Source of the DNA: Botryllus schlosseri
Lineage: Eukaryota
Reading direction: 5' to 3'
Assembly (NCBI GenBank): GCA_051294905.1
Contig: CM119371.1
Location: forward strand, 6,264,001-6,328,000
Length of the DNA stretch: 64,000 nt
Positions 12,687 through 63,152 of the stretch are shown here, one piece after another. Every line of letters starts with the position of its first letter. Position 1 is the stretch's first letter. Below the pieces are notes generated by a model. The model ran no database searches and had not been told where the DNA came from. It worked only from the letters and a program-made list of their open reading frames with translations. Made by a program: the position numbers and the translations under genes.

Positions 12687-12718
12687 ATCTGTGTGGTTAA
12701 TAATAACAGTGATTCGTG

Positions 12719-16880: not shown

Positions 16881-17159
16881 ACTGTTTTTTATAGTAATTC
16901 TGGTTCTAGTTTTGCAAAGTGAGTAGTTAGAGTTAGAGTTTCGCATTTAAAAGAGAAATTAATTGCCAAGGAATTAAAATAGCCGTGTCGTCGTTTGGCG
17001 CGAATCGTGATACCGATGAATTGCTGTGTGATGTTCGGGCTTATTTATTATATTTTGTTTCTGTCTCCACGACTTGTAAATTTATTGAATCAACGTACGG
17101 CGACGTAACGGTTCTTGCGAATCGTGAAATTGAATTGAATGAATAGGCTACGTTGTATT

Positions 17160-27600: not shown

Positions 27601-30600
27601 TCAAGTCCAAGTCAGCGAGCAGCGGGTCGAGTTCAAGTCATGGTATTATGACTCGAGTCCGAGTCATTGTGTTGACTTCCAAGTTTCCAGTTAAAGTCTT
27701 GTTAAATTCACTTTTTCAAACTCTGTTTGGCGATATTGAATGGTTCGCATTTATAATATACTAATTTTCCTAACTTTTAGCAGTTTTTCAAGTACCAGTA
27801 CCAATAGACTTGGCCGTTTTGAGTCCTGAGTCATATGATTTGGTTCTAGTCACGATAAAATCGTGACTCGAGTAGAGTCATGACTCGAGTCATTACAACC
27901 CTGCTGAGTGGTTTGATTTTTCAAATCATTATCTTCATTTGTATAATAATTTCAAATCGAAATAGGCTGACTTGGAAACCTAAATAATTCTAGTTGTTAA
28001 TCAGAACAAGATGACAGTAATATAATTCTAATCTAATCTGAAATATTGTTTATCTATGATTCTAATGTAATTTGGAATAGTTGACAATTTCTAGTTTTCC
28101 AAGTGTGAAAATAGGCTTATCCTGATACATGAACCTCTTCTCATCCACGTCCGTTAATATTTTGATATATTTAATAAAAATCTTGATTTGTAATATAGTT
28201 TTTTATCCAAAAATCCTGATTCCCAAACAATCTTTTAAAAATGTGACTTAATATCTGTGGTTTTATCACCAGAATGTTGGCGAGCGACCCGTCCCAACGA
28301 CCCTCTGTAAAGGAAGTGCTGGCCAGCGAGTTTTTCAACGGCTACATTCCACAGAAACTGCCCACAACCTGCTTGACCATGGCGCCCAGGTTCTCGGAAA
28401 GCCAACTACAACAGAGACGTCCGCTGCAGAGTCTGAACAGTGAGTTTTTTGTACTGGGTTCAAACATGGCGTTGGGTCACAGTCTGGCTCGGCAAAATCC
28501 AGTGCCTGGGTGTTTTGATTCTGGATCATGTAGACTTGGAGTATTCGATTAGCACTCATTATGAGGGTATAAATCACTGGTTCCCAAACTGTGGTCAGTT
28601 TACCACTAGTATGGGGTAGTATGGATTACTAACCTACCGAGATAGATACGCAACTCTCGCAAAACCCATTGTTACGCTCGAGCACGCAGTCTCATATTGC
28701 TGAGCAATCTAAAAGCATCATAATTGCTAGTGCTATCGCTGGCAAACCGAGGGCTGCAATTCAATAAAACTGGTCTTGATAGAAAGCCAGCGTCACACTG
28801 ATTCCGACAATACCAATTGAATCTTGTCAAGAAGATGGAACCACCTTAAAACAGCCCTCAAAGTATGAAAATCGACATTGTTCTACACGATCGCTTGACG
28901 AAATTGGCCATTGTTATGTTCATTGTGTTGCGGCGGTGCCATTGTTGGAACAATGCCGATTTTCAGAATTTGAGGATTATTTCGGGGTACAATAGCCCTG
29001 ACAAGATTTTAGTTTATAATTTCGAAATCATTACCTATGACACTAGCTTTCGATTAATCCAATCATATTGAATTACAGCGTTCAGGTCCCTATAGCAGTA
29101 CCAATTATGCTACTTTTAGGTTTATCAGCAATAAGAGACACTGCTTGCCCATGCGTGACCATCAGCAGTTACGTATCTGTATGTAGGACTAGGTTAGTAA
29201 TCTACAGTGGGAACATCTCAAGTGTTACTCAATTATGAATTTAAAAAAAATGTTTGGATCAATATTTTTAATTTTCTTTGTATTCAAGTAACATTGGGCC
29301 TTGCCAAACTAGATAAGGTACAAGTGATGCAGTGTAGCTTCATGTCCCCGGTAACGGAGAATCTCCGATGTAGTAATGTCTTTTTAGCACGACCCAGCTA
29401 CTCCATTTTGTCCAGCACTATCGATGAACTTATATCAGCAATATCTTGCACCACATCACCGAGTGGCCGATTCGAATGCTTACTTAATTGATTTCATTCC
29501 GAGTATAGAGTACCATTTTTTTGTGAAGTTATAAAGAAAAAGGGAACCCAATATTTCAAATTTCAATCTATTATAGGCCTACGCTGCCAATAAAATATAT
29601 TTGTTCAACCTTTTATTACAAATACCGCAATATTGTCAAGCTGTTAAACCTTGTTATTCTTGATTCATTTTTTTCAGGTGGCGCTAATACAGAGTCGCAG
29701 AAAACAGTGGGTGACAAACCACAGGCTACCGGCATATGCAGTAACGAATCGCCAGACTTCCACATGGCAGAATTGGAAGCACAACTCAAGAAATTGATCG
29801 ATACCAATCCAACTTTGAAGTCGGCTATAAATATGGGTTGGTTTTCATATTTTTACCACTGATTTTTTTGAGTTGAATCCGTTCCAACCCACTTTTTCAA
29901 TTCTGCTCGAGTGATATGAAATGGCTCACATTCATGATATCGTAGTTTGAGTCATGCACAATGACTCTAGTACAAGCCGAGTCAATACAAAAATTGACTC
30001 GAATAAGTCGAGTCACCAAAAAATCGCGACTCGAGTCATTACAACTCTGTTCGAGTCATGCACAATGACTCGAGTACAAGCCGAGTGAATACCAAAAGCG
30101 ACTCGAATAAGTCGAGTCACAAAAAATTGCGACTCGAGTCATTACGACCCTAGTATTGAGTCATATGACTTGCTTCGAGTCATGCACAATGACTCTAGTA
30201 CAAGCCGAGTCAATACAAAAATTGACTCGAATAAGTCGAGTCACCAAAAAATCGCGACTCGAGTCATTACAACTCTGTTCGAGTCATGCACAATGACTCG
30301 AGTACAAGCCGAGTGAATACCAAAAGCGACTCGAATAAGTCGAGTCACCCAAAAATTGAGACTCGAGTCATGCACAATGACTTCAGTACAAGCCGAGTTC
30401 ATACCGAAAGTGACTCGAATAAGTCGAGTCACAAAAAATTGCGACTCGAGTCATTACGACCCTAGTATTGAGTCATATGACATGCTTCAAGTCATGCACA
30501 ATGACTTCAGTACAAGCCGAGTCATTACCAAAAGTGACTCGAATAAGTCGAGTCACCAAAAAATCGCGACTCGAGTCATTACGACCGGAATAAATTCCAA

Positions 30601-33600
30601 TTTTAAGGCATGTGAAAATTACACTCCAATGTTTGCTCCAATCAGAATGACGATTTATTGTGAGCACGGGATTGTAGTTTATGGCACTTACTTATGGGTA
30701 TGAAATAATGTAATTAAGATTTGACGGTATTTGCTGATCTAACGTGAGAAGACAAGGTTTTGGCATATTCGAAAAATTGAATAGGAAACGATAGCATTGA
30801 GATAATCTGCTTACATGTGAAATTTGTTTATTTTTACAAATATTTTTGTTTTACAGATGAGGCGGAAGACCCAGCAGCTGTCCCGGTGCTCTGGATTAGC
30901 AAATGGGTGGATTATACGGATAAGTACGGGCTAGGTATGGAAATCTTGGAATCCTAAATATCCCTGCTTGTGTGCACAGAAGCGATGCCAGATGCGTCTT
31001 TTCTGTATATAATAAAATGGCTGAAAAATGAAAATAATTGGTCTCTAGAATATGGCCTGAAGTGGCAACTCTAATATTTCTATCATGATTTTGGGTTGAA
31101 ATTTTTATCATATATTGATGACTTCTTGTAGTACGAAGTGAGTTTTTCGCTACAAAGTTGATAATCGCTGCTCTAATCCAATTTTAATCTAATTCGGAAT
31201 TTTATTCAATTGCCAAGTTGTTGCAAATTCACTACTGGTAGTACTAATTCTAATTTAATTTGCAAAACTGAAACTTTGGAGGTCTTTCCAATTGTAATGT
31301 AAATTGGAAAAAGTTTTCTAGCTGTGCAACAATGGTCCTTATATCTTGTGTCCATTTTTGGAAATTTTGACTTTGACCATACAATTTGGACCTAAACCAG
31401 TTTTGTTTTCGATTTACCTTGAAAATGGAAGTTCATATGTCCACTTCACCATAGGCGCCGACTTTTATTATTTTGCGAGGTGGCGGAGTCTTGTAACGTC
31501 ATAATTGTTCCATATTGATGATGTCATCGTCGCACTAAAACGTACTTTACTACATGCCGCTGGCGTGTAACGATTCGCGTGACGTTTTAATATCGGCCCT
31601 GCACTATTGAATATCAAACCATGCAGTCGAGTCATTAAATGGAATCTTAAGACGGTACGATCATTCGAAAGAGTAACTACGCAACCAACCTGTCCGACGG
31701 AATGCATCGAACAAATATCAGGTTTTACGTCATTAGGAATCTGGAGTTGCATTAATGTTATTCACGCGCAATGCGCCGTGTGAGTAACGAAGTACACCAC
31801 GCACTAGCCTGGCAAGTAACACCACACCTCTTGAATATTTCAAGCAGTCGATAATGATGATTACAAACGCGAAATCGCGCAGCCAATCAGTAATTGAAGG
31901 CCAAATCATGACTTGAATTCCAATTTGCAAGCACACACACCCTTCAACTTCGCGCTCCGATTACCAAGACTATCACAAGCTAGCTAGCTATGTCGGCGCC
32001 TGGCTGGTTGAGGAGATCTAGGATGGTGCTTCTCGGCACAGGCTAGGCGCCAAATTATTGGGATTTTGATTTTTTTCAATTTACCAATATAGCATTAATT
32101 CAATTCTGGTCAAGCACATGTGTAAATGATGATCATATGATCTCTTCGTATTGACGATTTTGAGCGTATGATAAGCTTGCCAGCAACGATATAGAACTTG
32201 TTGTGGTCCAAAATATTGTCCAAATTTTGATAAATTCGCTTCAAATTTCAGGCTACCAACTATGTGACAACAGCAATGGGGTTTTGTTCAACGATAGCAC
32301 GCGAATACTTCTGTACGCTAACGACGAGCAAGTGGAGTACATCGACAGAGACATGGCGGAATCTTATTACACGCTCCAACAATATCCGAACACGCTAACC
32401 AAGAAAGTAACCCTGCTCAAGTATTTTCGCAACTACATGTGCGAGCATTTGCTCAAGGTGGGTCGAGTTTATCGTGATCTCATTTGGAATAAAAGTGTAT
32501 TCACAACCATTCGTAAATCAGGTGCATAAAAACTCTCAAGTTGGTATCTTTTGGCAATTTTGACAAGATAGGGTGACAAATTTCGTCTACACTCTCAAGC
32601 ATGATTTTCTTCACTACTGCCTTTATAGCAGACTTATACAACTGGATGATTCTAGTTGTTAAATTGGACTGAATAGAGCGGAATGCTGGAAATTGGATTT
32701 ATAGTCTAATTTGTGAAATGTTAATTTGCTCTAATTCTGATCTAATTTACGTTTTTCCTGAAAATGCTACAGGGTAGCTGTATAGTGTGAAGCCAACCAA
32801 GCTTGCTATACAACTATTTGCCACTCTCGTTCAAGTTTTCGTGGGTTCGGTAATTATAATCAACTTTGTCAGAAAAACAGTGTTGCTACAATTCTAATTC
32901 TAATCTAATTCAGAAATCAACAGTACATCTATCAATCTAATTGTAAAATAATTTGGAAAAAACCATGTTGCTATAAATTTAATTTAATTTGAAAAAAACT
33001 GTGTAGCTATAATTATAATTCTTGTATAATTTGAAAAAAGCTAGTAATCGTTCTAATTTTGGAAACAAACTGTATTGCTAAAAAAATCCAATGTCCAGAG
33101 TCACTCGAAATGACGTTCGACTCGAAGGTACCGATTACATCGCAACACTTGAAATGAGTGGCTGCGTTTCAACTAAGAAGTGTAGGTCTGAACTGCGAAT
33201 ACCGGCACACTTTCTTGACCGTGGATTTGCGTTTCAGGCCGGGGCGTCCATGGCGCCAAAGGAAGGTGACCAGTACGCTCGTCTGCCCTTCCTCAGAACG
33301 TGGTTTCGGACGAGAAGCGCCATCGTGCTGCATCTCAGCAACGGGACCATGCAGATCAACTTCTTCGAGGTAATATGAGATTGTGTTCGGGATATGGCAG
33401 GGGCGGGAAACTTCTCCAGTCGGCAAGGCCGCATGCGGGAAACTAAGTGCTTGACCGGCCAGATTCTTCAATCGATACATTAATTGCATATTTATCCACT
33501 TACCGACAATCTGAACCAGGGGCGGGCAACTTCTCAAGTCGGCGGGCTGGATATAGGAATATTACGTAGGCCTACTTGGTGGGCCGGATTGCTGAATCGA

Positions 33601-46495: not shown

Positions 46496-47206
46496 ACCAG
46501 TGATGAGGGGACTGTGATATTTTTCGGTCAAAGTCCGATCCTGAAAATTTTCAATTCAGTCCTACTCCATCCTGATTCAAAAATATTTTCAAAATCGAAA
46601 GTCCCATTCGATAACTGAAATAACAGAAGAACATGTTACAGAGAATAATTAGGCTCTCTGAAATATAACTCTGGTTTGTGACAAGATGTATAATTCCATT
46701 GTTTGCCTACACTCGAAACAACAGTAGGCCTACATGAAACAACAATTTTCATTTCACATTTTAGCAACACGAATGCAAATGACTAAATTAGCAAGATGGC
46801 TATCAATACCTTAATCATCACATCATGAACAATGCGCATGTACATCAGGGTTGATTATAATAGGTTTTATTTTTATAAATTTGACTGACTAGTTGATAAA
46901 ATTGTTAGGTCGGTTCAATGAACAAACGCTACGCATCAAATTCGATTCAATTCCAGCCTGTAAAAGCGAAGTTATTACAACTGGAGAATTTTCAATATAC
47001 TAAGAAGTATACACATTTTTTTCAAATTATACTGGCTGCCCATCCCTATGAAGTTTTGTAAGAAAATGGTGCATTACAAATTTGATTCAATTCCGACCAA
47101 TGGAAGCGTTAAAAACATGGTATTTACTCTGGGAAATTCTTCAATCAATAATTATTGAGCTACAACACTATTTTGAAGAGCTTCTTGGAGGTACAGCACT
47201 TTATTA

Positions 47207-47394
47207 TACAATTGAATAGTATATTATTATTGAAAAGAACCCGAATAGTTTCGACAGACACTCGTCAAGGGTACCATACTGGTAATCATCAGCAACTAGT
47301 GGATAATTGGTAAGAACATTGTATATCAACAATCGTATCACAAAATATGTCAACCGAAAATATCCGGGTTCATTCCAATATGAATATACTATTC
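47207..47394. mobile_element. Penelope-like pLTR fragment with inversion
   Basis: 47207-47349 is the reverse complement of ~60337-60468; 47348-47394 repeats the pLTR end on the plus strand. Confidence 0.75.
47239..47272 (-). ncRNA. Degenerate minimal hammerhead ribozyme (C3U variant)
   Basis: ACCC-UUGACGA-GUGUCUGUC-GAAA-CUAU-UC-GGGU. Confidence 0.55.
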
Positions 47395-48059
47395 AGATTC
47401 AACACTATTTTTCTAGCCCAAAATTTTCCACTTCAATGAATTCACCTACACCGGTTGTAATTCGACTAGTAGCATCTTCAGCCAGTAAATTTGAAAAAAA
47501 GAAGTTATTTCAATCCAACCCTATTGTACCTATACACCCGGATATCTCTCCTAATCGATACAACAACCTGTAGCGTATACCTCGCCGATTGAGTTGTATT
47601 TTTGGCTTGTGAAAATGCAATGCACCTTTTGAATCTGCATAGACAAATACATCACTTCCAATCGCAAAAACAAATATTTGACAGTGTCAGATATTTCAAT
47701 CGCTTTTTCGCACTATAGTTATAGTATTTTTGGGAACACAGATTAGTGGAGATAATGGGGAACACTTCCCAATTATGTATGGTACTTGTACAAGTACCTT
47801 GGATTGGCCCCATTTCCACCCGCTTTGAAAAACAATTGATTTCTGCTGTCGGTAAATGTTACGATACAGTCAAAACCAATGTGATTTTTACAACAACACA
47901 ACTGCTCCCTTCAACACGCAAAGACGTGCTTCCTGCACTTCAACAAAGTAATGTAGTGTACGAATATAGGTGCCACTGTGATTGTGGCTACGTGGGAAGA
48001 ACGTCAAGACGGAGTAGGGGTTAAACCCGCTCAGAGGCCAAACGCCGAGCGGCGGCCGA

Positions 48060-48345
48060 ATGTCTATACGGCGTTTGGCGTCTGGTTTTCCGAGACGCCA
48101 AGTAGCTATACGGCGTTTGGCGTCTGTTATGTTCAGACGCCGAGTAGCTATACGGCGTTTGGCGTCTGATATCGTGAGACGCCGAGTAGCTATACGGCGT
48201 TTGGCGTCTGATATGGTGAGACGCCGAGTAGCTATACGGCGTTTGGCGTCTGCTATGTTCAGACGCCGAGTAGCTATACGGCGTTCGGCGTCTGGTATGT
48301 TGAGACGCCGAATAGCTAATAGCTACACGGCGTTCGGTGTCTCGG
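48060..48345. repeat. ~39-bp tandem repeat in the left arm of element A (mirror at ~54300-54460)
   Basis: Unit agacgccgagtagctatacggcgtttggcgtctg + ~5-7 variable nt, about 7 copies. Confidence 0.9.
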
Positions 48346-49074
48346 TAAACTGAGCAGAGGCTAAATCCTTTCATGGCGCGACTATTGAGTTCTCGCAACT
48401 ATATGACACCGAAGATTGCATATTGTTACATTTTTTTCATAATAAGCGTTGGCAGAATCCCAAATGATTGTATGCTCGGATTCAAAAAAGACCTACTTGA
48501 TCACCTCCTGTCGTTATACTACTTACTCGACTCACAATTGTTTTGCTGACCTGAGTTATCTTCTTAAAAATGGATTTACTCATTCTATGGCTTATTCAAG
48601 AATAGTATATCAGGACTGATAAATGAAAAATAGGCCCTAAACCTGCCTTTTATCTGTTACAATAAACATGTTCAGAGTGGGAAAAATGAACATATGAATT
48701 ATCCGAGGCCTTCGATATCACCCCCGAGAGTTCCACAGAAGTGACCTGAAGCAGAACTGGATGGGGGAACATTAAACACCATGACTTGGACTCAACTCAG
48801 TGCTCTCGGAATTGACTCGGTGGTGAATTGAAAATGACTCGAGTCAAATTGACTTGGTTACAACCCTGTCACCACCCCATATCAGTGTTGGGATGACTCG
48901 CTAAAATGACTCTAAATGACGCTAAAATGACTTGATTCGAGTGAGTCAAAATGTGCAATGACTCGTGACTCGAAGGTAGTTACTTGAACCCAACCCTTTA
49001 TTTGTACACTTGCAATGAATTTCAGACCCAAGTCTGTAGATACAGTATGTAATGAAACCACAATAAGAAATATG

Positions 49075-49305
49075 CAACGAATACCACAGTAAAAATTATC
49101 AAGAAACAAGCAACAAAACCACAGTAAAAGTCACAAAGAAATCAGCAGTGGAACCACAGTAGAAGTCACAGAAAAATAAGCAATGGAACCACAGCAAACG
49201 TCATTGAGAAATCAGCAATGAAACCACAGTAAAAATCACTTTGAAACAAGCAACGAAACCACAGTAAAAGTCATTAGTAAATACGCAACGAAACCACAGT
49301 AAAAT
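49075..49305 (+). repeat. 35-bp minisatellite, 7 copies
   Basis: ccacag at 49084, 49119, 49154, 49189, 49224, 49259, 49294. Confidence 0.85.
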
Positions 49306-49513
49306 GTCCCCAATAAATATATCAACATCAGAATTTACATCTGGGTACATAGCATGCAATAAAAATCAGGATCAGGTATCTGCTGTCCCGGCCAACAGTG
49401 CTCGTGCGTCCATCGACCACAGCCGTCACACGCATCCTGGAAACAAGTTAGAATCAATATACCTAACAAATGTAATCTCGTAATTGCTTAGGAAAGATGT
49501 GGTACTGATGGAT

Positions 49514-50074
49514 CAGGGTTGTAATGACTCGACTCGAGTCACGATTTTTTGATGACTCGACTTGACTCGAGTCATTTTCTTAAAATACGGAAATGACTCG
49601 ACTCGAGTCAATCCGCGTATTGACTCGACTTGGACTCGAGTCATTGCTCATGACTCGAACCAAGTCATATGACTCGAGACTCAGACGGCAAGACCGACAT
49701 TTCATTGTGATTTCAAAGAATAGTAAAGTAACCACCGTATTGGGATTTCGTATATTGGTACTGGTACTTGAAAATGCGACCAGAAACGGTTAAATGTGAG
49801 GAAAATTAGTATATTATGAATACGAACCATTCGATATCACCAAATAGAGTCATAAAAGTGGGTCTAACATGACCTTAACTGGAAACTGAGCAGTCAACAC
49901 AATGACTTGGACTCGAGTCATAACACCATGACTCGGACTCGAACCTCTGCTCGATGACTTGGACTCGGACTTGACTCGGTGGTAAATTGAAAATGACTCG
50001 ACTTGACTCGAGTCAAAACTATAAAAGTGAGATTGACTTGTGACTCGCAGCCTTGTGACTTGGTTACAACCCCG
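49514..50074 (+). mobile_element. Full-length 561-bp GACTCGAGTC hAT-type MITE
   Basis: Ends CAGGGTTGTAA / TTACAACCCCG. TSD TGATGGAT/CGATGGAT. Confidence 0.88.
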
Positions 50075-50892
50075 CGATGGATCAAAAATTGCAAAATGAT
50101 CTCTGGCCCTCAAATCTTCAGCCGAGAATATATCTTTTGCTGGCTCAACACTTTGATCCAAGCTCTACGTACATGAATATCCACTTTTTCAAAAAATATT
50201 CATGAACGTTCAAAATTTGTTGCTCGAACGCATGATTGGTCCCCACTCGGTAGGTCCTAAGGCACACGAGTGACACAACCATGGGACCACCTTCAAGAAT
50301 AAAATAGATTATTTGATTATATCAACTCAAATGTTGGAGTAAAATCACGTTTCGATTTACGCCCAAAACAACAAAATTATTGGCACATACATATTACCCG
50401 TAAATCGACATTTTGACTTTCAATTACCTCGTTATAGCGATAAAGCACCACAGGAGACTATGATTTGCAGCCTCTATATGTGTAGGCGTGTTTCTGTTGT
50501 TAAGTGATTAGTTGATTCAAACATTTTGCTTGATTTGGTTATGGTACCATAGGCCCCCCACCCTATAAATATGGTAATTGAATTGAAAATAGTCAACTCG
50601 AGGATGGTATTGAATTAAAAAAGACGTGACATTATATACCATGATACAAGCCCTACACTTCACATTAAAAATAACGGCTGGTTTGTTAGTGTGAAAGATT
50701 CTGCCAGAATGCATTTGTAGACAAATTCGCATACTGTAATCATAGGATTATCTCAGATAATTTTTCAAGTATTTTCGGTCCCACTGTCTCATCGGTACCA
50801 CATCTCCCCTACCCATTTCATGTTTTTTTGGGTTTTGACCACTGCATTCAATGCAATAATCTCCCAATTCTTATTCATCTGCATGCAAAACA

Positions 50893-51440
50893 TACTACCC
50901 GCACTTCAACAAAGCAATGTAGTTTACGAATTTAAGTGTCACTGTGATTGTGGCTACGTGGGAAGAACGTCAAAGCGATTGCAGGAACGCATAAATCAGC
51001 ATGTCCCTAGATTCATTAGAACACGCTCGATGAAAAGCTCACCCTTAACTCACCCGCTCAAGATTGATGCGGAACAATCAAAGGCCATGAATTCTGCAAT
51101 TGGCAAACACTTGTTGGATAATCCCGCCTGTGCGAAAAATTATCGAGACGACAGATTTCGCATACTCGGAAAGGGTCGCTCACACTTTCATTTGTGCGCC
51201 TTGGAGTCGACTTTTATCAAAATACACCAGCCAAGGCTGTGTCAACAAAAAGAGTTCGTGTATCATCTAAAAATAGTACATTGAACGCTCTCGTATTCGA
51301 CATTTCGTGCTGGTGACGTCATATTTTGTGTTACGATTGTTGATATACGCTGTTCTTTCGAATTCTCTACTAGTTGCTGACGATTACCCCTGACGAGTGT
51401 CAGCCGAAAATATTCGGGTTCATTTTAATATGAATATACT
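50893..51440 (+). mobile_element. Second Penelope-like 3' fragment (GIY-YIG endonuclease + pLTR)
   Basis: ORF to 51284: LPALQQSNVVYEFKCHCDCGYVGRTSKRLQERINQH...KIVH*, followed by the same pLTR as 60303-60468. Confidence 0.9.
51386..51419 (+). ncRNA. Minimal type I hammerhead ribozyme in Penelope pLTR
   Basis: ACCC-CUGACGA-G(UGUCAGC)C-GAAA-AUAU-UC/GGGU; predicted cleavage after 51415. Confidence 0.75.
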
Positions 51441-53438
51441 CAGTGGCGGCTCGTGACAATATCGGGTGGTGGGGCAAGGGCTGCAAGCGACTTTTTATCA
51501 AGATGACGTCACAATGGCGTTTTCCAACGTAAACAAGTAACTTGGTGGTACGGACTACGGTAACACGAACTTCCCGACAACAGTGATTTTAACGTATGTG
51601 CCGCGAGAGGTCTGCCGGTGAGCTGTGACTTGAAGTGTGGTAACTGCGTAAACGGCGTACGGAACAAAGATTCGACACGGTTCATGTTCGCACTATACCT
51701 GACTAATTATCTGCAGCAATGGAAATGACTATAACTCGAGAGATTGCGTAAGCCTAACTGGAAAGGTCAACGAGTTCGGACACATACGCAATTGTTATCT
51801 CATAGATTGGACATGTCATATTGAATCCAAAACATAATTCTGAAGAACTACGGATAGCGGCCTCGGAAATTCGGTCCCGGTACAGCATAGGAGATTTTGG
51901 CCTTGAGGCTGGAGACTGTCACACGACACATACGGCTTACGCGGTCTATAGTGTCTATATGTCTGCTGCACAATCGCCTTGGGAAAATATATTACCGAAT
52001 AAATACGTGGATGAAAGCCGAAAACTTGGTACACTGTTACATGAAATCATCGAGAAATAGCCTCATGACCGTTTTCGGTATGGTACACTGTCAAAATTAA
52101 TACGAACAGACAACACCGAATTTTGCGTAAAATTTACTGAGGAATAGGCTGATCAAGCGATCAGCTCTTAGCCGCCATCGAAAACGAAACAGCTATCGCG
52201 CTTGACAGGGGTTGTAATTGTAAGCAAATGGCCTGAAGGCCACAATTTCATGGTGAAATTGACATTGGAGAATATAAAATAAAAGTAAATATTTGAATGC
52301 AAACCGAGGATGTTAGTAAACTGTTTCATGATATCATCATCTCATCACCTATCTCAGTATGGAACACAGTTAGCGTTAACACAGATACACCGGCTTTTGC
52401 GTGAAATCCGCAATGCGTTAGGTGGGCTAAGTGTCAGATCAGCGCACATCTCTACCATACTCGACCTTGATAACGAAATTGCTGCCCTAATCATTGAGTG
52501 CCAACCTTGAGACTAGGTACAGCGTTCGATACTAAAATCAAGACATACCATGCAAAAGCTCATGACGGATCTAGGTAAGGAGCATCGTTAAAATCAATGG
52601 AGACCAATACCGGCTTTACGTAAAATATGTTTGCGATAAATGACGAGTCAGCTCTCACTCGACTTAGGAAACGAAATTACCACAAACACAGTACAGTGAC
52701 AAACTTGAAACTTGGTACAGCGTTCGATACTAACATTAAGACTTACCGTACCAAATGTCATGACCGATCTCGGTATGGAACATCGTCAAAATCAATGGAT
52801 ACCAATTCCGGCTTTTGAGTAAAATCTGTTTGCGATACATGACGGTCAGCACACACTCAACTTCGGAAACGGAATTACTACCCTAAACTTTAAGTAGAAA
52901 CCCTGTAACTTGGGACAGTGTTAAATACCACCATCACGACATGACATACCAAGTTTCAAGAATTATCATGGTGTGAAACACCATCAAAATCGACCTATAC
53001 CAGCAAAGGTCGACTAAACGCATATGACGGTAACCGAGTTCAGATATAGATACGATTGTTACATCACACCTTGAGGGCGACTAGGCTATGTTGCCCCGGT
53101 TGCTCGGTAATTTTATGAATAGGAGAAAGTAAATCACTGTTTCTTTATTGTGCGCGGCTTTGAGAGAATAGACAGTGAAAGCTTGTTATGAGCGCTACCG
53201 GGGCATGCCCCGGCTAGGCATTCGCAAAGCGAAAACACGGAAGAGAATTCGATTTTCGCAGAGACTTCGCTATATATGGGCTGGGCATTTACAAGCGAAA
53301 GGACAAGAAGAATACGATTTTCGCTGTGATTTCGGTATATATAGATTGCTGTGCGTCTCTAAATGGTAAAGAACTGTTATTGAACAGAATTTTAGGTGGG
53401 GCAATGCCCCAGTTGCCCTATAGGACGAGCCGCCACTG
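51441..53438. mobile_element. 1998-bp non-autonomous hAT-type element
   Basis: TIR CAGTGGCGGCTCGT. Perfect TSD AATATACT at 51433-51440 and 53439-53446. Degenerate ~200-bp internal repeats at ~52510-53000. Confidence 0.9.
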
Positions 53439-54647
53439 AATATACTATTCAATTAAAACATACTACGTATTTAAAATAGTTTTAATCCAACATTGACTAA
53501 CATACCCGTCGCATCCAGTAAGATTTGACCAAACTGCTGGCGGTAGCTTTCGCAAGCTCGTCGAGAATGATCAAAATCCAGGTTTGCATCGGGTAGAGTT
53601 CGGCGGCCTATTACGTGAAAGTAGATTGCAAATCAATTTTCTCAAATCTCAATACGTGAACGCATCACAAACCTTCAAAGCAAGTATTCCACAATTTCAT
53701 CCATCTTTTTGAACATCAATCCTGGTCTTTAACCTTGAACTTCTCACAACCGAAGATCATTTGGAGTATACTTGTGAAGAATTTTACGGAGAAATATGGA
53801 AACGAAATTTTAGGTGTGTCTTGAACACGATCTCAGTGACGCGAACTGTTGATTTACCACAGCATACGTGAAGTGGAGATACAAAGGATTTTGCAGCTGT
53901 TTCAGTATAGTCTAGAATCAATCACCAACTAACTAAAGTTGATTTGGGATGGACTGACCCTATGGGCCTACTAGAAAACAATAAAATATCTTGTTACTAC
54001 ACGTCACATACTGTAATCTTCTTGCGGTAGTTAAGTTCCCAGCAACAAATCATGCAGTATCTGTAGTAACGTGACTGACGATCTGTCTAATGCGAAACGT
54101 GTATGTTCTCAAGCTGCCAGATCTTCAGTGTCGACCCAGCACCGAAGCACACGCGATGTCGTCACTTAGTAGCGTGTAAGTGTACAGGTACACACGAAAC
54201 AACCATCAAATCACTTGCCCCCTGGCCAATGATATGACATGCTTTGCTTAGATTTAGCTGCAGAAAACTCCTGTTCAAGCCTCAACCTTCAAATCAAACC
54301 CTATTCTCAACATACCAGATGCCGAACGCCGTATAGCTAGTCGGCGTCTGAACAGACACCAAACGCCGTATAGCTATTCGGCGTCTGAACGTAACAGACG
54401 CCAAACGCCGTATAGCTACTCGGCGTTTCAGAAAACCAGACGCCAAACGCCGTATAGACATTCGGCCGCCGCGCGGCGTTTGGCGTCTGGCGTTTGGCCT
54501 CTGAGCGGGTTTAACCCCTGTTGTCAAGACGTCTGCAGGACCGCATAAACCAACATGTCCCCAGATTTATCAGAACACGTGCGTCACGCGATGTGAAAAG
54601 CTCACCCTTAACTCATCCACTCAAGATTGATGCTGATCGATCGAAAG

Positions 54648-57600
54648 GAGGAAGGTTGGTTCGATTGGTTTGAAATAAGGACAGATTTGTTTGAAATGAG
54701 GAGAGTCTCATGTTTGAAATGAGGATAGTCATGTCAGAAATAAGGATAGTCATGTTTGAAATAAGGATAGTCGCTATATTCACTATAAAGTCAGTTACAG
54801 TACCAGGCACGACGTCCCAGAGGTAACCCAGTCCGAACACATCCCAGACATGATGTCCGAACACGCCCCAGACACGATGTCCTAGCGTCAACACAGTCCT
54901 AACACACCCCAGACATGATGTCCGAACTCGCCCCAGACCCGATGTCCGATTGGCAGCACAGGCCGAACACACCCCAGACATGATGTTCAAACACGCGCCA
55001 GACACGATGTACCAGTGTCAATACAGGCCCAACACGCCCAAGACACCATGTATGAATGGCAACACAGACCGAACACGCCCCAGACACGATGTCCGAGTGT
55101 CAACTCAGATCCGAAAACAACCCAGACACCATGCTTGAATGGCCGAACATGCCCCAGACACGATGTCCGATTGGCAGCACAGGCCGAACACACCCCAGAC
55201 GTGATGTCCAAACACGCCCCAGATACGTTGTCCGGGTATCAACATAGGCCGAACACACCCAAGACATCATGTCCGAATGGCAACACAGGCCGAACATACC
55301 CCAGACATGATGTCCAAACACGCCCCAGACACGATGTCCGAGTATCAACACAGGCCGAACACGCCTAAGACACCATGTCCGAATGACAATACAGACCGAA
55401 CACGCCCCAGACACGATATCCGAGTGTCAACTCAGTCCGAACACAACCCAGACACCATGTTTGAATGGCCGAACACGCCCCAGACACGATGTCCGATTGG
55501 CAGCACAGGCCGAACACACCCCAGACGTGATGTCCAAACACGCCCCAGATACGTTGTCCGGGTATCAACACAGGCCGAACACACCCAAGACATCATGTCC
55601 GAATGGCAACACAGGCCGAACATACCCCAGACATGATGTCCAAACACGCCCCAGAAACGATGTCCGAGTATCAACACAGGCCGAACACGCCCAAGACACC
55701 ATGTCCGAATGACAATACAGACCGAACACGCCCCAGACACGATATCCGAGTGTCAACTCAGTCCGAACACAACCCAGACACCATGTTTGAATGGCCGAAC
55801 ACGCCCCAGACACGATGTCCGATTGGCAGCACAGGCCGAACTCACCCCAGACGTGATGTCCAAACACGCCCCAGATACGTTGTCCGGGTATCAACACAGG
55901 CCGAACACACCCAAGACATCATGTCCGAATGGCAACACAGGCCGAACATACCCCAGACATGATGTCCAAACACGCCCCAGAAACGATGTCCGAGTATCAA
56001 CACAGGCCGAACACGCCCAAGACACCATGTCCGAATGACAATACAGACCGAACACGCCTCAGACACGATATCCGAGTGTCAACTCAGTCCGAACACAACC
56101 CAGACACCATGTTTGAATGGCCGAACACGCCCCAGACACGATGTCCGATTGGCAGCACAGGCCGAACACACCCCTGACATGATGTCCAAACACGCGCCAG
56201 ACACGATGTCCGAGTGTCAACACAGGCCGACACGCCCCAGACATAATGTCTGAATGGCAGCACATGCCGAACACAACCAAGACATGATGTCGGAACACGC
56301 CCCAGACACGATGTGCGATTGGCAACACAGTCCCAACACCCCCCCCTCCAGACACGATGTTAATAAGGTTGGTCATGTTTGAAATAAGGTCAGTCTCGTG
56401 TTTGAAATAAGGATAGTCATGTTAGAAATGAGGATAGTCATGTTTGATATAAGGATAATCATGTTTGAAATAAGGTTAGTCTCATGTTTGAAATGAGGAT
56501 AGTCATGTTAGAAATGAGGATAGTCATGTTTGAAATAAAGATAGTCGCTATATATTCACTATGAGGTCAGTTGTAGTACCAGGCACGATTTCCCAGTGGT
56601 AACCCAGTCCGAACACATCCCAGATCCAGTCCAAACACATCCCAGACATGATGCCCGAACTCGCCGCAGACACAATGTCCGAGTGTCAACTCAGTCCGAA
56701 CACAACCCAGACACCATGTTTGAATGGCCGATCTCGACCCAGACATGATATCCGAACACGCGCCAGACACGATGTCCGAGTATCAACACAGGCCGAACAT
56801 GCCCAAGACACCATGTCCGAATGACAACACAGACCGAACACGCCCCAAACACGATGTCTGATTGGCAACACAGGCCGAACACACCCCGGACATGATGTCC
56901 GAACACGCTCCAGACACGATGTCCGAGTGTCAACACAGGCCTAACACGCCCAAGACACCATGTCTGAATGGCAACACAGACCGAACACGCCCCAGACACG
57001 ATGTCCGATGAGTGTCAACTCAGTGCGAACACAACCCAGACACCATGTTTGAATGGCCGATCTCACCCCTGACATAATGTCCGACCACGCACCAGACACG
57101 CCGAAGACACCATGTCCGAATGACAACACAGACCGAACACGCCCCAGACACGATGTCTGATTGGCAACACAGGCCGAACAAACCCCGGACATGATGTCCG
57201 AACACGCTTCAGACACGATGTCCGAGTGTCAAGACAGGCCTAACACGCCCAAGACACCATGTCTGAATGGCAACACAGACCGAGCACGCCCCAGACACAA
57301 TGTCCGAGTGTCAACTCAGTCCGAACACAACCCAGATACCATGTTTGAATGGCCGAACACGCCCCAGACACGATGTCCGATTGGCAGCACAGGCCGAACA
57401 CACCCCAGACATGATGTCCAAACACGCCCCAGATACGTTGTCCGGGTATCAATACAGGCCGAACACACCCAAGACATCATGTCCGAATGGCAACACAGGC
57501 CGAACATACCCCAGACATGATGTCTGATTGGCAACACAGGCCGAACACACCCCGGACATGATGTCCGAACACGCTTCAGACACGATGTCCGAGTATCAAC

Positions 57601-60093
57601 ACAGGCCGAACACGCCCAAGACACCATGTCCGAACGGCAACACAGACCGAACACGCCCCAGACACCATGTTTGAATGGCAATAGCACAGGCCGAACACGC
57701 CCCAGACATGATGTCCGAACTCGCCGCAGACACGATGTCCGAGTGTCAACACAGGCCGACACGCCCCAGACATAATGTCTGAATGGCAGCACAGGCCGAA
57801 CACAACCCAGACATGATGTCGGAACACGGCCCAGACGCACTCACATGGTGTCGACTCCTACAGACTACAGAGAAATATGCACGACAACGCATGATCTTGA
57901 GATTTTTTCTAGCTAGCATTCATGAATATTCTTGTTTGCAATACATTTGATTACATTCCAAAACATACTTGTGCTTTATTGCTTGCGACACGTAAAAATG
58001 AGGTAAAATGTGCATTATGGCTGTATTAAGTAAGTTCAACCTTATAAATTTGCGACACAAGATAGCGAAGTTATTGGGGCGTGTTCGGTTTGTGTTGCCA
58101 TTCGGACATGGTGCCTTCGGCGTGTTCGGCCTGTGTTGATACTCGGACATCGTGTCTGGCGCGTGTTCGGACATCATGTCTGGGGTGTGTTCGGCCATTC
58201 AAACATGGTGTCTGGTTTGTGTTCAGACTGAGATGACACTCGGACACCGTATCTGGGGCGTGTTCGGTCTGTGTTGCCATTCAGCATGGTGTCTTGGGCG
58301 TGTTAGGCCTGTCTTGACATGCACTCGGACATCGTGTCTGGGGAGTGTTCGGACATCTTGTTTGGGGGGTGTTCGGCCTGTGCTGCCATTCAGACATGGT
58401 GTCTTGGGCGTGTTCGGCCTGTGTTGACACTCGGACATTGTGTCTGAGGCGTGTTCGGACATCACGTCTGGGGTGTGTTCGGCCTGTGTTGACACTAGGA
58501 ATCGTGTCTGGGGCGTGTTCGAACATCATGTTTGAGGTGTGTTCGGCATGTGCTGCCATCCGGACATGGTGTCTTGGGCGTGTTCGGCCTGCGTTGATAC
58601 CCGGACATCGTGTCTGGGGCGTGTTTGGACATCATGTCTGGGGTGTGTTCGGCCTGTGCTGCCAATCGGATATCGTGTCTGGGGAGTGTTCGGACATCAT
58701 GTCTGGGGTATGTTAGGACTGTGTTGACGCTAGGACATCGTGTCTGGGGCGTGTTCGGACATCATGTCTGGGATGTGTTCGGACTGGGTTACCACTGGGA
58801 AGTCGTGCCTGGTACTGCAACTGACTTTATAGTGAATATAGCGACTATCCTTATTTCAAACATGACTATCCTTATTTCTAACATGACTATCCTCATTTCA
58901 AACATGAGACTAACCTTATTTCAAACATGACTATCCTTATATCAAACATGACTATCCTCATTTCTAACATGACTATCCTTATTTCAAACACGAGACTGAC
59001 CTTATTTCAAACATGACCAACCTTATTAACATCGTGTCTGAAGGGGGGGGAGGGGTGTTGGGACTGTGTTGCCAATCACACATCGTGTCTGGGGCGTGTT
59101 CCGACATCATGTCTGGGTTGTGTTCGGCATGTGCTGCCATTCAGACATTATGTCTGGGGCGTGTCGGCCTGTGTTGACACTCGGACATTGTGTCTGCGGC
59201 GAGTTCGGACATCATGTCTGGGGTGTGTTCGGCCTGTGCTGCCAATCGGACATCGTGTCTGGGGCGTGTTCGGTCCGTGTTGCCATTCGGACATGGTGTC
59301 TTGGGCGTGTTTGGACATCATGTCTGGGGTATGTTAGGACTGTGTTGACGCTAGGACATCGTGTCTGGGGCGTGTTCGGACATCATGTCTGGGGTGTGTT
59401 CGGCCTGTGCTGCCAATCGGACATCGTGTCTGGGCCATGTTCAGCCATTCGAACATGGTATCTGGGTTGTGTTCGGTCTGAGTTGACACTCGGACATTGT
59501 GTCTGGGGCGTGCCCGGTCTGTGTTGCCATTCACACATGGTGTCTTGGGCGTGTTAGGCCTGTATTGACACTAGGACATCGTGTCTGGCGCGTGTTTGGA
59601 CATCATGTCAGGGGTGTGTTCGGCCTGTGCTGCCAATCGAACATCGTGTCTGGGGCATGTTCGGCCATTCAAACATGGTGTCTGGGTTGTTTTCGGATCT
59701 GAGTTGACACTAGGACATCGTGTCTGGGGCGTGTTCGGTCTGTGTTGCCATTCAGAAATGGTGTCTTGGGCGTGTTAGGCCTGTATTGACACTCGTACAT
59801 CGTGTCTGGCACGTGTTTGAACATCATGTCTGGGGTATGTTAGGACTGTGTTGACGCTAGGACATCGTGTCTGGGGCGTGTTCGGACATCATGTCTGGGA
59901 TGTGTTCGGACTGGGTTACCACTGGGAAGTCGTGCCTGGTACTGCAACTGACTTTATAGTGAATACAGCGACTATCCTTATTTCAAACATGACTATCCTT
60001 ATTTCTGACATGACTATCCTCATTTCAAACATGAGACTCTCCGAATTTCAAACAAATTTGACCTTATTTCAAACCAATCGAACCAACCCTGTA
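54648..60093 (+). mobile_element. 5.4-kb foldback-type DNA transposon B with satellite arms (MULE-like, 9-bp TSD)
   Basis: TSD GATCGAAAG at 54639-54647 and 60094-60102. Ends GAGGA-AGGTTGGTTCGATTGG...CCAATCGAACCAACC-CTGTA. Inverted arms 54651-57836 and 58075-60089 around a ~240-bp spacer. Confidence 0.92.
54830..59930. repeat. Modular CCGAACACGCCCCAGACACGATGT satellite with 326-bp higher-order repeat, inverted about 57837-58074
   Basis: Near-identical blocks begin at 55277, 55603 and 55929. 21-23-bp (tgtttgaaataaggatagtca) arrays at ~54665-54775, 56375-56545, 58845-59015, 59970-60075. Confidence 0.92.
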
Positions 60094-60403
60094 GATCGAA
60101 AGCCATTAATTCTGCCATCGGCAAACATCTGTTGGATAATCCGATTTGTGCGAATAATTATCGAGACGACCGATTTCGAATCGTAGGTCGAGGCCGTTCA
60201 CAATTGCATTTGTGTGCCTTGGAATCAACTTTTATCAAAATACACCAACCAAAACTCTGTCAACAAAAGGAGTTCGTGTATCACCTAAAAATAGTACATT
60301 GAACGCTCTCTCATTCGAAATTTCATGCTGGTGACGTCATATTTTGTGATACGATTGTTGATATACAATGTTCTTTCCAATTCTCTACTAGTTGCTGACG
60401 ATT

Positions 60404-60437
60404 ACCCCTGACGAGTGTCAGCCGAAAATATTCGGGT
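60404..60437 (+). ncRNA. Minimal type I hammerhead ribozyme in Penelope pLTR
   Basis: Identical to 51386-51419; predicted cleavage after 60433. Confidence 0.75.
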
Positions 60438-60889
60438 TCATTTCAATATGAATATACTATTTAATTGTAGATTTGAATGTCTGAACAATAACTGAGAATT
60501 AAATTATCACAAGTGAATCCATAAATTACAGCGTAAAAGATATTGGAATGTCAGCAACTCTTTACGGTCATAGTTACTACCACATTAACTAATTTACCCG
60601 GCCAACTCGTCATGATCATTCCTGAAATCAACACAAACATGACCACTGACTTGAGTTAACCATAAAACAGCATCAAGTTTTAAATCCGCTTGTAGCTGAC
60701 GGATTATTTGAATGCATCGATAGAGAATATTGTTGAACTCGTGAGTATTCTATTTCAATGAACTTTCGTTTTTTATACCGACTGCGAAAGTTAATATCGA
60801 ATCGTAAGACTTGAAACAAATCACATATTTGTTTGATGATAACACAGACATGACAAAAAACATTACCGAGATTTTATAAACTAGTCACC

Positions 60890-63152
60890 TCTACGGCGCC
60901 TTTCGAGAAGTCAAAGAAAATTGAAGCGAAATCCGTGGATGACCACAAAGCTGATTCAACTTATTCGTAAACGTAATCGATGGCATAACCGATTAGACAC
61001 CAAGAACTGCCCAGAACATGAACGAGAAAGATTTCGACGTTTCAGGAATCGCACCGTGCATCTCATTTCCAAGGCAAAAGCAAAGTACAATGAGAGATTT
61101 TTCAACAGACACATAAAGGACACTCGAAAAACATGGTCAGGACTTAACTCTCTCCTACATCGGAAAAAAGGCCATAAGTCTGTTTCGGAAATTGTGAATT
61201 CGGATACCGGAAACAAACTTTCAGACCCGGCGGCCATCGCGAATCACTTCAATGAATATTTTTGTAACGTAGGCCCAAATATTGCTTCTTCTATTACAAA
61301 ACCTGTGTCGGCCAGGTCAGAGGTGAGATCGATATCCCAGTCAATTGTGCTTGAACCTACGACCAAATACGAAGTAGAAGTAGCCATCCACAAACTGAAA
61401 TCGCACAAGGCCGACGGCTATGACCAAATCCCATCATGGTTTCTAAAAATGATAAGCCTGCATATCGGTCAATATATGGCCCATTTTTTCAACTTCATGA
61501 TAGAAAATGGAGTCTACCCAAGCTATCTAAAAAAAGCCAGAGTAGTCCCTGTACACAAAGCTGGGGATAGAACTAATGTCACCAACTACCGTCCGATATC
61601 CGTTCTCCCATGCATCGGGGTTGTATTCGAAAAGTTGCTCCTCTCCCGCCTGTCCTCATTCCTCGCCAAAATGTCTGTCATTTCCCCTCAACAATTTGGC
61701 TTCCGAAACAAACACCAAACCGCACATGCCCTCCTAACAGTGGCCGAACAGTATTATGATATCTCAGAGAAGCGAAATGTGGGATGTAGCATTTTTCTCG
61801 ATCTAAAAAAAGCGTTTGACTGCGTAGATCATAAAATTCTCATCTCGAAATTGGCGCGTTACGGACTTCGGGGCCCACAACTTGAGCTCATGAAAAGTTA
61901 CCTCACTGGACGCCAACAAATGGTTGCGATCTCAGACACCTTGTCCTCTCCTCACCTGGTGACCTGTGGTGTGCCCCAAGGCTCAGTACTTGGACCCGTC
62001 CTTTTCACCTTATATGTCAACGACATTTTTGAAACCTCCTCATTGAACACCACACTGTTCGCTGATGATACTCACCTCCTCTCTTCCGCATCTTCGACGG
62101 CAGAGCTGGATGCCCTGACTGGTGACCAAATGCCCAAAGTCCATGAGTGGACGGCCCAGAACAACCTTTGCATAAACGCGTCGAAATCGCAATTGCTGAC
62201 AGTGAATTCAAAAAATAACCTAACCGTTAATATCGCTGGTCAGCCCGTTTCCAACACAGATAATGCCAAATATCTCGGGGTTTTACTGGACTCGAACATG
62301 TCCTGGAAGAGTCATACTCAGTCCCTAGAAACTAAATTATCACCGAAGTGCGGCCTGTTCTACAGCCTTAGGCGCTTCATGCCAGCATGGGTTCTTCTGA
62401 TACTCTTTAAATCCTTAATCCAATCGAAGTTACACTATGGCATCCTCTGTTGGGGGGCTGCCAGTAAAACTGCACTCAAGCCACTGCAAAAACTACAACA
62501 TAAAGTACTCCGAATCATAGCTAGGGCCCCAAAGGGGCCTGGCTGCCCATCCAACAAGTCGCTGCTGAAGAGATTCGGCGTCCTAAACATAGACGATATG
62601 CGGAAACTAGAAATCGCCAAGTTTATGTATCAGTTCCACTGCGGTCGTTGCCCCGAATATTTCAATGACTTCTTTACCTCGGAATCAAAAGCGCACAAGT
62701 ACAACACACGCGCGTCCACGTCGTCAAAATATCATATGATCGACCGAAAAGATCATCGCTCTATCAAATATGCCGGACCTGATGTGTGGAACAGTATCCC
62801 GCCGGCCATCCGACAGTCGACGAGCATGTCCACATTCAAGTCGAAATACAAGCAATTACTACTAAGTAAATACAGTCCATCCTCAAGATTACCGGACCTC
62901 GGCTGACCTATCGATCTCGCTTCCCATGACATGCCGCCCTATTTCTTGTCGCTTTCTTTTTTCTATACTATCTTCTTTACTTTCATTCAGTGTGCATGCC
63001 TCTTTACATCGCCTAGGCCAAGGTGGGTGTCAGATTCCATAGACTACTCCTTGTCGCTTCGACATCTTCCTGTCTTTTCATTGTATCGCATTTTTTGTGG
63101 TGTATTGAACTGATAAAATTGCTAATAAACCAATGATGATGATGATGATGAT
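60890..63152 (+). mobile_element. 5'-truncated CR1/L2-group LINE with (TGA)n tail
   Basis: RT ORF, ~225-nt 3' UTR, AATAAA, then tgatgatga... to 63152. No TSD seen; 5' boundary approximate. Confidence 0.92.
60921..62906 (+). CDS. LINE ORF2 reverse transcriptase (APE endonuclease missing), 661 aa open frame
   Basis: PWMT, KADGYDQI, NYRPISVL, QQFGFR, FLDLKKAFD, GVPQGSVLGP, LFADD, YLGV motifs. Starts at TTG with no true initiator. Confidence 0.9.
   Translation: MKRNPWMTTKLIQLIRKRNRWHNRLDTKNCPEHERERFRRFRNRTVHLISKAKAKYNERFFNRHIKDTRKTWSGLNSLLHRKKGHKSVSEIVNSDTGNKLSDPAAIANHFNEYFCNVGPNIASSITKPVSARSEVRSISQSIVLEPTTKYEVEVAIHKLKSHKADGYDQIPSWFLKMISLHIGQYMAHFFNFMIENGVYPSYLKKARVVPVHKAGDRTNVTNYRPISVLPCIGVVFEKLLLSRLSSFLAKMSVISPQQFGFRNKHQTAHALLTVAEQYYDISEKRNVGCSIFLDLKKAFDCVDHKILISKLARYGLRGPQLELMKSYLTGRQQMVAISDTLSSPHLVTCGVPQGSVLGPVLFTLYVNDIFETSSLNTTLFADDTHLLSSASSTAELDALTGDQMPKVHEWTAQNNLCINASKSQLLTVNSKNNLTVNIAGQPVSNTDNAKYLGVLLDSNMSWKSHTQSLETKLSPKCGLFYSLRRFMPAWVLLILFKSLIQSKLHYGILCWGAASKTALKPLQKLQHKVLRIIARAPKGPGCPSNKSLLKRFGVLNIDDMRKLEIAKFMYQFHCGRCPEYFNDFFTSESKAHKYNTRASTSSKYHMIDRKDHRSIKYAGPDVWNSIPPAIRQSTSMSTFKSKYKQLLLSKYSPSSRLPDLG

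Follow-up and report, generated by a model that had tools for sequence, protein, structure and literature searches.

Two foldback elements with unrelated arms and similar ends, inserted 125 bp apart in a truncated Penelope copy of Botryllus schlosseri

A stretch of 64,000 nucleotides from Botryllus schlosseri (the window) contains two foldback elements, A and B, lodged in one fragment of a Penelope element. They are probably non-autonomous members of two families of a single Rehavkus-like, Mutator-related group that landed there independently, their spacing being a matter of chance (probability about 0.72). Both have a target site duplication (TSD) within the 8–11 bp range of MULE/Mutator elements and long terminal or subterminal inverted repeats. 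Together they supply two well-bounded new families and a terminal signature usable for collecting a little-described MULE-related group, and A links this signature to the remnant of an Ulp1-like/PHD gene. Table 1 gives the features of the locus.

Table 1. Features of the A/B locus, numbered by position in the window
Feature	Position	Strand	Basis
Host Penelope, 5′ piece: linker, then beginning of the GIY-YIG endonuclease, VYEYRCHCDCGYVGRT	47797..48011	+	start placed by eye from codons
Left TSD of A, 9 bp, GTCAAGACG	48003..48011	+	exact repeat, empty-site joint
Element A, 6511 bp	48012..54522	.	TSD, inverted arms, empty site
Left end of A: GAGT as unpaired tip, then palindromic GGGTTAAACCC and a 42-bp repeat in 6.1 copies	48012..48318	+	
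35-bp minisatellite, 6.9 copies, between PHD stop codon and 3′ arm	49064..49304	.	
Final exon of the dead gene in A, with the C-terminal PHD half and the stop	49335..49436	-	AG acceptor
TA-flanked MITE nested in A	49491..50809	.	TIR 17/22, TA on both sides
Presumed hAT-like MITE within TA-MITE, CAGGGTTGTAA ends	49514..50074	.	8-bp duplication, 1 mismatch
Predicted exon: N-terminal CxxC half of PHD finger, with stop and frameshift	50813..50878	-	by-eye reading
Second Penelope copy, 5′-truncated, in predicted intron of A	50899..53454	+	
Presumed hAT-like element, 2.0 kb, CAGTGGCGG ends, in inner Penelope's tail	51441..53438	.	8-bp TSD AATATACT
Predicted exon 3′ of Ulp1-type cysteine motif, frameshifted	53506..53607	-	AG/GT ends
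Putative Ulp1/C48-type catalytic cysteine motif QKDG*NCGI, internal stop, then GT donor	53673..53711	-	
Right end of A, with 4 copies of the 42-bp repeat, the palindromic motif and GTT as unpaired tip	54305..54522	-	
Right TSD of A (GTCAAGACG, 54523-54531), 116-bp Penelope spacer, left TSD of B (GATCGAAAG, 9 bp, exact, 54639-54647)	54523..54647	+	
Element B, 5446 bp, gene-less foldback, tips GAGG / GTA	54648..60093	.	
Unique loop of B, ~235 bp, no ORF recognised	57840..58074	.	
Right TSD of B (GATCGAAAG, 60094-60102), remaining endonuclease ORF, host 3′ tail	60094..60460	+	stop 60300-60302

The boundaries, 9-bp TSDs, common orientation and non-complementary tips that the original prediction assigned to A and B were all borne out: the duplications are exact repeats, with no further duplicated base on either side, and empty-site forms exist. 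Contigs from four of 24 listed runs were compared with positions 47600–54830; an A-free joint (48002 to 54523) occurs in all four, with nine shared letters in three of them. The insertion points, predicted to lie ~120 bp apart, measure 125 bp from each other. A composite transposition of A, spacer and B as one unit was rejected because the outer flanks bear different TSDs.

Compared with canonical endonuclease-bearing Penelope-like elements as described in bioRxiv 10.1101/2021.04.23.441226, the host is only a 5′-truncated piece of ~0.7 kb without reverse transcriptase, its homology running from near 47797 over ~180 codons. Its three parts, in the order of Table 1, show 94, 98 and 99% amino acid identity with residues 56–126, 130–171 and 168–236 of P0001, an uninterrupted Penelope copy that is continuous across both insertion sites. 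Leaving out A, B and one TSD copy of each yields a frame free of stops up to the TGA at 60300–60302. The expectation that such removal would restore a GIY-YIG ORF is therefore correct for the frame, although what is restored is a truncated fragment rather than a working gene. EN+ Penelope elements have a GIY-YIG endonuclease with a CCHH motif at the C-terminus of an RT ORF; of this motif, two Cys and a candidate His were read by eye. Among 15 relatives, three are full-length RT+EN proteins and six contain RVT_1. A search for a TSD of the host Penelope found none. As for the hammerhead ribozyme that EN+ elements have in the pseudo-LTR, the Penelope tails carry a CTGACGA..GAAA pattern, seen by eye, which has no Rfam match and a predicted fold other than hammerhead; none of the seven Rfam matches over 47000–61000 reached the gathering score.

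Satellite arms are difficult to assemble, and among the contig pieces listed none spans the stretch or bridges an A junction at the locus. An assembly artefact would nevertheless have to account for two exact and different TSDs, a continuous host frame at 94–99% identity to P0001 and three more nested TSDs, none of which misjoining would yield, and is extremely unlikely.

Without its nested insertions, A measures ~2.6 kb or less. Its arms of ~200–300 bp are 94.5% identical across 201 columns; the 5′ tip GAGT is followed by AGGGGTT and the 3′ end reads CCCCT-GTT. Judged by gene direction, the left end is the element's 3′ end. A retains a broken spliced gene with a PHD finger at its end and an Ulp1-type cysteine motif upstream. 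The last exon matches Pfam PHD_2 (E 0.0068, under the curated cut-off), aligns with a PHD of P0018 and holds the sole CxxCx4HxxC of the window. The cysteine motif follows a pattern that is presumably that of Ulp1/C48; it has a single match in the six frames of the window and none in 3 Mb of simulated sequence. This stretch has no Pfam match at E 0.1, and the Ulp1 label is a putative one, given at the level of the motif. The introns are GT-AG and span 65, 59 and 55 nt after discounting nested inserts, and a joint from 49435 to 53505 with CT..AC ends is present in one of four runs. A search with two exons of A found no homologues. A further homology search with the gene remnant gave three matches, one generic PHD protein and two repeat artefacts; P0016 and P0017 were rejected as homologues of A's exons on the latter ground. 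A Pfam scan of the unique interior of A, over 24 frames, detected neither a DDE transposase nor FLYWCH, and no DDE sequence was found in B either.

This anatomy resembles that of Rehavkus, for which a 9-bp TSD, a PHD finger and a minisatellite ahead of the 3′ TIR are described (PMC6446971) and which has been placed within the MULE/Mutator superfamily or next to it (PMC6446971; bioRxiv 10.1101/2024.12.02.626372). A and B share with it the 9-bp TSD, found in five of the six families listed in PMC6446971, and long inverted ends with tandem repeats; A alone adds the PHD finger, as a broken two-exon remnant, and the minisatellite ahead of the 3′ TIR, B being without PHD. In contrast to Rehavkus, no transposase is left in A or B, the Ulp1-type motif ahead of the PHD in A is absent from the features listed for it, and the arms of B, at 2–3 kb, exceed the listed 26–412 bp (PMC6446971). 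Rehavkus was compared by its described anatomy, and its termini may already show GAG/GTW tips. The broken PHD gene of A, the Ulp1-type motif upstream of it and the minisatellite before the 3′ arm are new here. As for the predicted assignment to MULE-related foldbacks, the Rehavkus-like part stands, more strongly for A given its PHD exons, Ulp1-type motif and minisatellite; the status of FB-NOF as a MULE, also invoked, was not confirmed, the FB-NOF paper being cited in PMC4079207 among exceptions to the equation of foldback with Mutator.

Element B is nearly pure arm. Its left arm extends over 3.19 kb and its right over 2.02 kb, lengths that could still be off; each comprises two blocks of 21-bp repeats and a modular 24/41/65-bp satellite, and 2015 of 2024 right-arm bases are matched in inverted form by the left arm. 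The 5′ tip GAGG is followed by AAGGTTGG and the 3′ end reads CCCT-GTA. Elsewhere in the window, just 15–20-bp matches to the satellite occur, near 25915–26022. B is assigned to the MULE type solely by its TSD length and tips. It could instead belong to another superfamily whose foldbacks leave a similar footprint, as it has no coding remnant and foldbacks have evolved in several superfamilies (PMC3169594, PMC4079207), but its 9-bp TSD and tips match those of A, whose anatomy is Rehavkus-like, and such an origin is unlikely.

The arms of A and B are unrelated, as had been claimed: blastn (word 7, E≤1) finds no match between the elements, and 6–9-mers common to one 42-bp unit of A and the left arm of B are no more numerous than in simulation (p 0.07–1.0). 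Their ends share the signature GAG[T/G]-A[G/A]GG ... CCCT-GT[T/A] with a 9-bp TSD. The tips alone agree at 5/7 positions (P 0.015), and tips plus first arm bases at 10/14 (P ~5e-4). A window-wide scan for GAG...GT[AT] segments bounded by 9-bp direct repeats returned seven candidates, of which only A and B have inverted arms (19–20 of 20 matches vs 4–6); the scan found no other GAG/GTW foldback in the window. Arm patterns of A and B had no matches in metagenome contigs (0 and 0). For the four runs, the best 15 of 1440 joints were examined together with 24 of 6519 loose ends, and none of them lies at a tip. No further copy of A or B with its flanks emerged from these comparisons.

How far this likeness extends to the enzymes can be weighed against Muta1 of Aedes aegypti, in which the arm repeats mediate binding and cleavage depends on them (PMC5499845). 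A single transposase might recognise, in both families, only the tip with the adjoining ~10 bases of the arm (AGGG..TT), the satellite arms being interchangeable padding; this would also fit chance spacing. The terminal agreement, the equal TSD length and the common polarity (chance 1 in 2) suit it, as does the 10-bp terminal motif of Muta1, which by itself is bound by transposase and permits end joining (PMC5499845). Donor cleavage in Muta1, however, requires a subterminal repeat besides the terminal motif (PMC5499845), the arm repeats of A and B are unrelated, and the palindromic terminal motif of A is absent from B. One enzyme for both families is possible, yet clearly the less probable reading. 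The similar ends show kinship and are not proof of one enzyme, since the arm repeats are unrelated; for the same reason two related enzymes are favoured, and those acting on A and B are probably related yet distinct. By analogy with Muta1, a DDE transposase supplied from another locus of the genome would bind the arm repeat arrays, cut at the directional tips and insert the element via a 9-bp staggered cut. The tips common to A and B would then be a conserved cleavage signature of the group, and A would have arisen by internal deletion, retaining from the gene of its parent the 3′ end (an Ulp1-like protease end and a PHD finger). Muta1 resembles the present elements in its 8–9-bp TSD, its palindromic terminal motif (GGGTCTACCC, against GGGTTAAACCC in A) with subterminal repeats, and the unequal repeat numbers at the ends of its non-autonomous copies; it differs in ends described as symmetric through the last base, without unpaired tips (PMC5499845).

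A foldback with 9-bp duplications and asymmetric tips beyond its arms has been published before, namely Tm1 of root-knot nematodes, a Mutator/Foldback element of the Phantom subclass with composite arms (PMC3169594). A and B resemble it in the TSD, in composite arms of variable repeat number, in tips beyond the inverted repeat and in the unrelated elements nested inside. The 7-bp tips of Tm1, CGGTTAA / CCTACCC, contrast with the 4-bp GAG[T/G] and 3-bp GT[T/A] found here, and its transposase carries FLYWCH, not PHD (PMC3169594). A and B thus work like Tm1 without being members of it, the tips differing in length and sequence and no FLYWCH match being found.

The nesting order inside A is directly visible. 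A carries at least four nested insertions, which it would have gathered after its own formation, and one is a second copy of the host's Penelope family, so that insertion is reciprocal. This inner copy is 86–89% identical to the host pieces, matches Pfam GIY-YIG at E 4e-4 (slightly under the cut-off) and is flanked by a 12-bp TSD, AAAACATACTAC, at 50887–50898 and 53455–53466. A joint from 50886 to 53455, representing A without the inner Penelope, occurs in 4/4 runs. Captured cargo in the style of Pack-MULEs was rejected for it, since it has its own TSD and copies of A without it exist. The TA-flanked MITE splits a predicted splice donor of A, and its end recurs with other flanks in 112 records of run X1; the MITE within it, which we take to be hAT-like, has more copies in the window.

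The spacing of 125 bp most likely arose by chance, in DNA crowded with nested insertions, and not by targeting. Under a uniform model with 1000–5000 elements in 0.3–1 Gb, both inputs being assumed, ~0.1–10 pairs within 125 bp would be expected, falling to 0.02–0.1 where copies are scarce or the genome is large. That a target of ~0.7 kb received two independent insertions spaced by 125 bp could alternatively reflect steering to Penelope endonuclease DNA as a safe haven, as Dada goes to small-RNA genes, or a strong local hotspot within it. Penelope DNA outside the host amounts to 771 bp, 1.2% of the window, a share at which two insertions per copy would be rare. The two positions differ, however: the target sites agree at 4/11 positions (C-G on the left border, a single inner A and the final G) with no motif beyond, whereas Dada uses specific sites (PMC3706591), and Tm1 is described as lacking a target consensus (PMC3169594). 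Neither site is occupied in the inner Penelope copy, in P0001 or in P0002, and, as a weak indication, none of the best 15 of 1440 joints connects an A tip to another Penelope position. A literature search at the level of listings yielded no account of MULEs that target Penelope. Such steering or a hotspot, both put forward in the original prediction, has the A/B pair as its one instance and is very improbable.

A resident arm might also have homed the second element, its bound transposase recruiting the incoming transpososome alongside. The spacing, the same polarity and the kindred tips would fit, but this is a single pair, the arms have no binding repeat in common, and unrelated elements moved by different enzymes lie equally close inside A (TA-MITE and Penelope copy, 75–87 bp apart); homing is accordingly quite improbable. 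Equally doubtful as steering is the combined reading that a single transposase with directional ends moves families with unrelated arms and also directs them into Penelope endonuclease DNA or beside each other. If true, targeting or cross-mobilisation of unrelated arms would be notable, few DNA transposons being target-specific (Dada and partly Pokey; PMC3706591), and a DNA transposon would have a retroelement or its own kin as a safe haven. Dada and Pokey are likewise DDE elements within multicopy sequences, but their targets are conserved RNA genes, which Dada enters at fixed positions, leaving a 6–7-bp TSD (PMC3706591), whereas A and B occupy two different sites of a dead retroelement (n = 2).

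Under chance spacing, A and B would have landed independently in a dead, 5′-truncated Penelope copy, from a very abundant family, in which insertion would be costless, the 125 bp between them being aided by an insertion-saturated neighbourhood. Summed contig depth of Penelope is 24–75 times that of A's unique interior in all four runs, a rough ratio rather than a copy number.

A and B are real, well-bounded, non-autonomous foldbacks of Rehavkus-like type, without a transposase, inserted in a dead Penelope fragment. The two elements' duplications of the target site (TSDs, 9 bp each) allow no extension at either one. A begins with GAGT-AGGGGTT and ends with CCCCT-GTT, B begins with GAGG-AAGGTTGG and ends with CCCT-GTA, and these terminal sequences place the left four and right three bases outside the inverted repeat in both. 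Seven GAG...GT[AT] segments lie between 9-bp repeats in the window, but inverted arms occur in A and B only (2/7). The arms of A are 94.5% identical over 201 columns, with six copies of a 42-bp unit in one and four in the other, while B has one arm of 3.19 kb and one of 2.02 kb on either side of a 235-bp loop. The pair of same-orientation foldbacks with 9-bp TSDs, differing arms and GAG/GT(T/A) tips is borne out, with exact TSDs and unrelated arm sequences. Over the tips and the first seven arm bases, however, 10 of 14 positions are the same in A and B (P about 5e-4). In B, the terminal 21-bp block is repeated internally in both arms (56339-56600 and 58800-59050), and this repeat is 98% complementary between arms versus 89-93% for the outer arms, which suggests that the arms may have been copied from one another after the duplication. 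A short stretch at 25898-26022 resembles the B satellite unit (15-20-bp matches) and is possibly an old arm remnant.

Features of elements A and B, with window coordinates
Feature	Coordinates	Strand	Remarks
Element A	48012-54522		Exact 9-bp duplication on both sides
Element B	54648-60093		Exact 9-bp duplication on both sides
Exon of A gene	49335-49436	minus	C-terminal half of PHD finger and stop
TA-flanked MITE nested in A	49491-50809		hAT-like MITE inside
CxxC exon of A gene	50813-50878	minus	
Exon of A gene	53506-53607	minus	
Ulp1-type cysteine motif of A	53685-53711	minus	

The minus-strand pieces of A are predicted remnants of one spliced gene. Its introns are GT-AG and 65, 59 and 55 nt long with inserts discounted, and its exons carry stops and frameshifts. 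The cysteine motif, which we take to be of Ulp1 type, is the sole match in the window, against none in 3 Mb of simulated sequence. One of four sequencing runs, X16 (of unknown kind), contains a joint 49435->53505 with CT..AC ends, a mere hint of a spliced transcript from an A-family copy. A homologue search with the exons returned no close homologue, and B contains no coding remnant. In A, the stretch from the PHD stop to the GAG-end arm includes a 35-bp minisatellite.

Rehavkus elements are described as having a 9-bp TSD, a PHD finger and a minisatellite ahead of the 3' TIR, and A matches them in all three (PMC6446971). The predicted MULE-related affiliation is provisionally supported for A by these features, although no DDE domain is found in it (0/24 frames); on TSD and tips alone, B would be placed in the group of A. 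Ulp1 domains are known from plant MULEs (PMC2528002), and Tribolium Rehavkus arms contain tandem repeats of up to many kb (bioRxiv 10.1101/2024.12.02.626372). Tm1 shares with A and B both the unpaired tips outside the foldback arms and the 9-bp TSDs, which have no target consensus in Tm1 (PMC3169594). The portion of PMC13359780 on MULEs gives conserved G/C terminal bases and does not mention asymmetry. Because asymmetric tips and 9-bp TSDs recur in Tm1, and repeat arms in Rehavkus, the shared tips mark a group; they may already occur in Rehavkus ends (Repbase; FASTA supplements of PMC6446971). That a single enzyme moves both families is rather doubtful, since the unrelated arms point to two, presumably related, enzymes.

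Leaving out A and B gives the host a stop-free frame, as the original prediction held, and P0001, an independent 236-aa protein matching the host endonuclease, is continuous over both sites (94, 98 and 99% match to the three host pieces). Three of 15 matches are relatives of 821-840 aa with an upstream reverse transcriptase; canonical endonuclease-bearing Penelope-like elements have this architecture (bioRxiv 10.1101/2021.04.23.441226). The host starts near 47797 and is thus a 5'-truncated piece of ~0.7 kb, non-functional already. Contigs were compared for four runs out of 24 listed. All four contain the joint 48002->54523, with nine shared letters in three, which independently confirms the A footprint. 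All four also contain 50886->53455, indicating other A copies without the inner 2.6 kb. This inner segment is another copy of Penelope, flanked by a 12-bp TSD and carrying a 2.0-kb element in its tail; this element and the one inside the TA-flanked MITE are presumably hAT-like. Without nested inserts A would span about 2.6 kb or less. Also inside A, at 48775-48975, the truncated ends of two hAT-like MITEs from different families adjoin; no TSD was found there. At 47207-47392, some 400 bp upstream of the host and possibly belonging to its insertion, stands an inverted and direct piece of the host family 3' tail (84% identical), an arrangement typical of Penelope. By eye, both Penelope tails (60375-60445 and 51355-51422) contain a hammerhead-like core CTGACGA..GAAA; neither has an Rfam match, and the predicted fold is not a hammerhead.

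The insertion sites, first put at ~120 bp apart, are separated by 125 bp, for which chance is the most likely explanation. Outside the host, 771 bp of the window (1.2%) belong to the host family, which is, as a rough ratio, 24-75 times deeper than the unique interior of A in the four runs. Besides the host, at least six insertions are counted in the cluster, Penelope has inserted into A too, and two mechanistically unrelated insertions inside A lie 75-87 bp apart. The A and B target sites agree at 4 of 11 positions. Under assumed inputs of 1000-5000 elements and 0.3-1 Gb, about 0.1-10 such pairs are expected from a uniform model, but the pair would be rare (0.02-0.1 expected) were the families small and the genome large. 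The shared polarity also counts against chance. No further A or B flank was seen, with no tip among 15 joints out of 1440 or 24 loose ends out of 6519. The arm patterns have no match in metagenome contigs. Targeting of the insertions would be a very improbable reading. The target-specific DNA transposons known so far insert at fixed sites within RNA genes (PMC3706591), and a limited literature search listed no paper on a MULE that targets Penelope.

Elsewhere in the window, a LINE reverse transcriptase ORF (673 aa, 60885-62906, plus strand; RVT_1 E 8e-35) lies 425 bp from the host tail. A truncated copy (15941-16880, within 15896-16888, minus strand) is 98% identical, and the LINE family is therefore young. 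One element with CAGGGCTGTG ends and GGAGTC repeats is present twice, in opposing orientations and at 89% identity (10962-12718 and 17160-19243), the latter copy with an 8-bp TSD; the end of the former harbours a nested 3.0-kb element (12719-15708; 8-bp TSD GATTCGTG). Exons of a polo-like kinase gene, in keeping with an intron-rich eukaryote, are scattered among repeats at 28247-32529, with a POLO box at 32164-32526 (E 6e-18).
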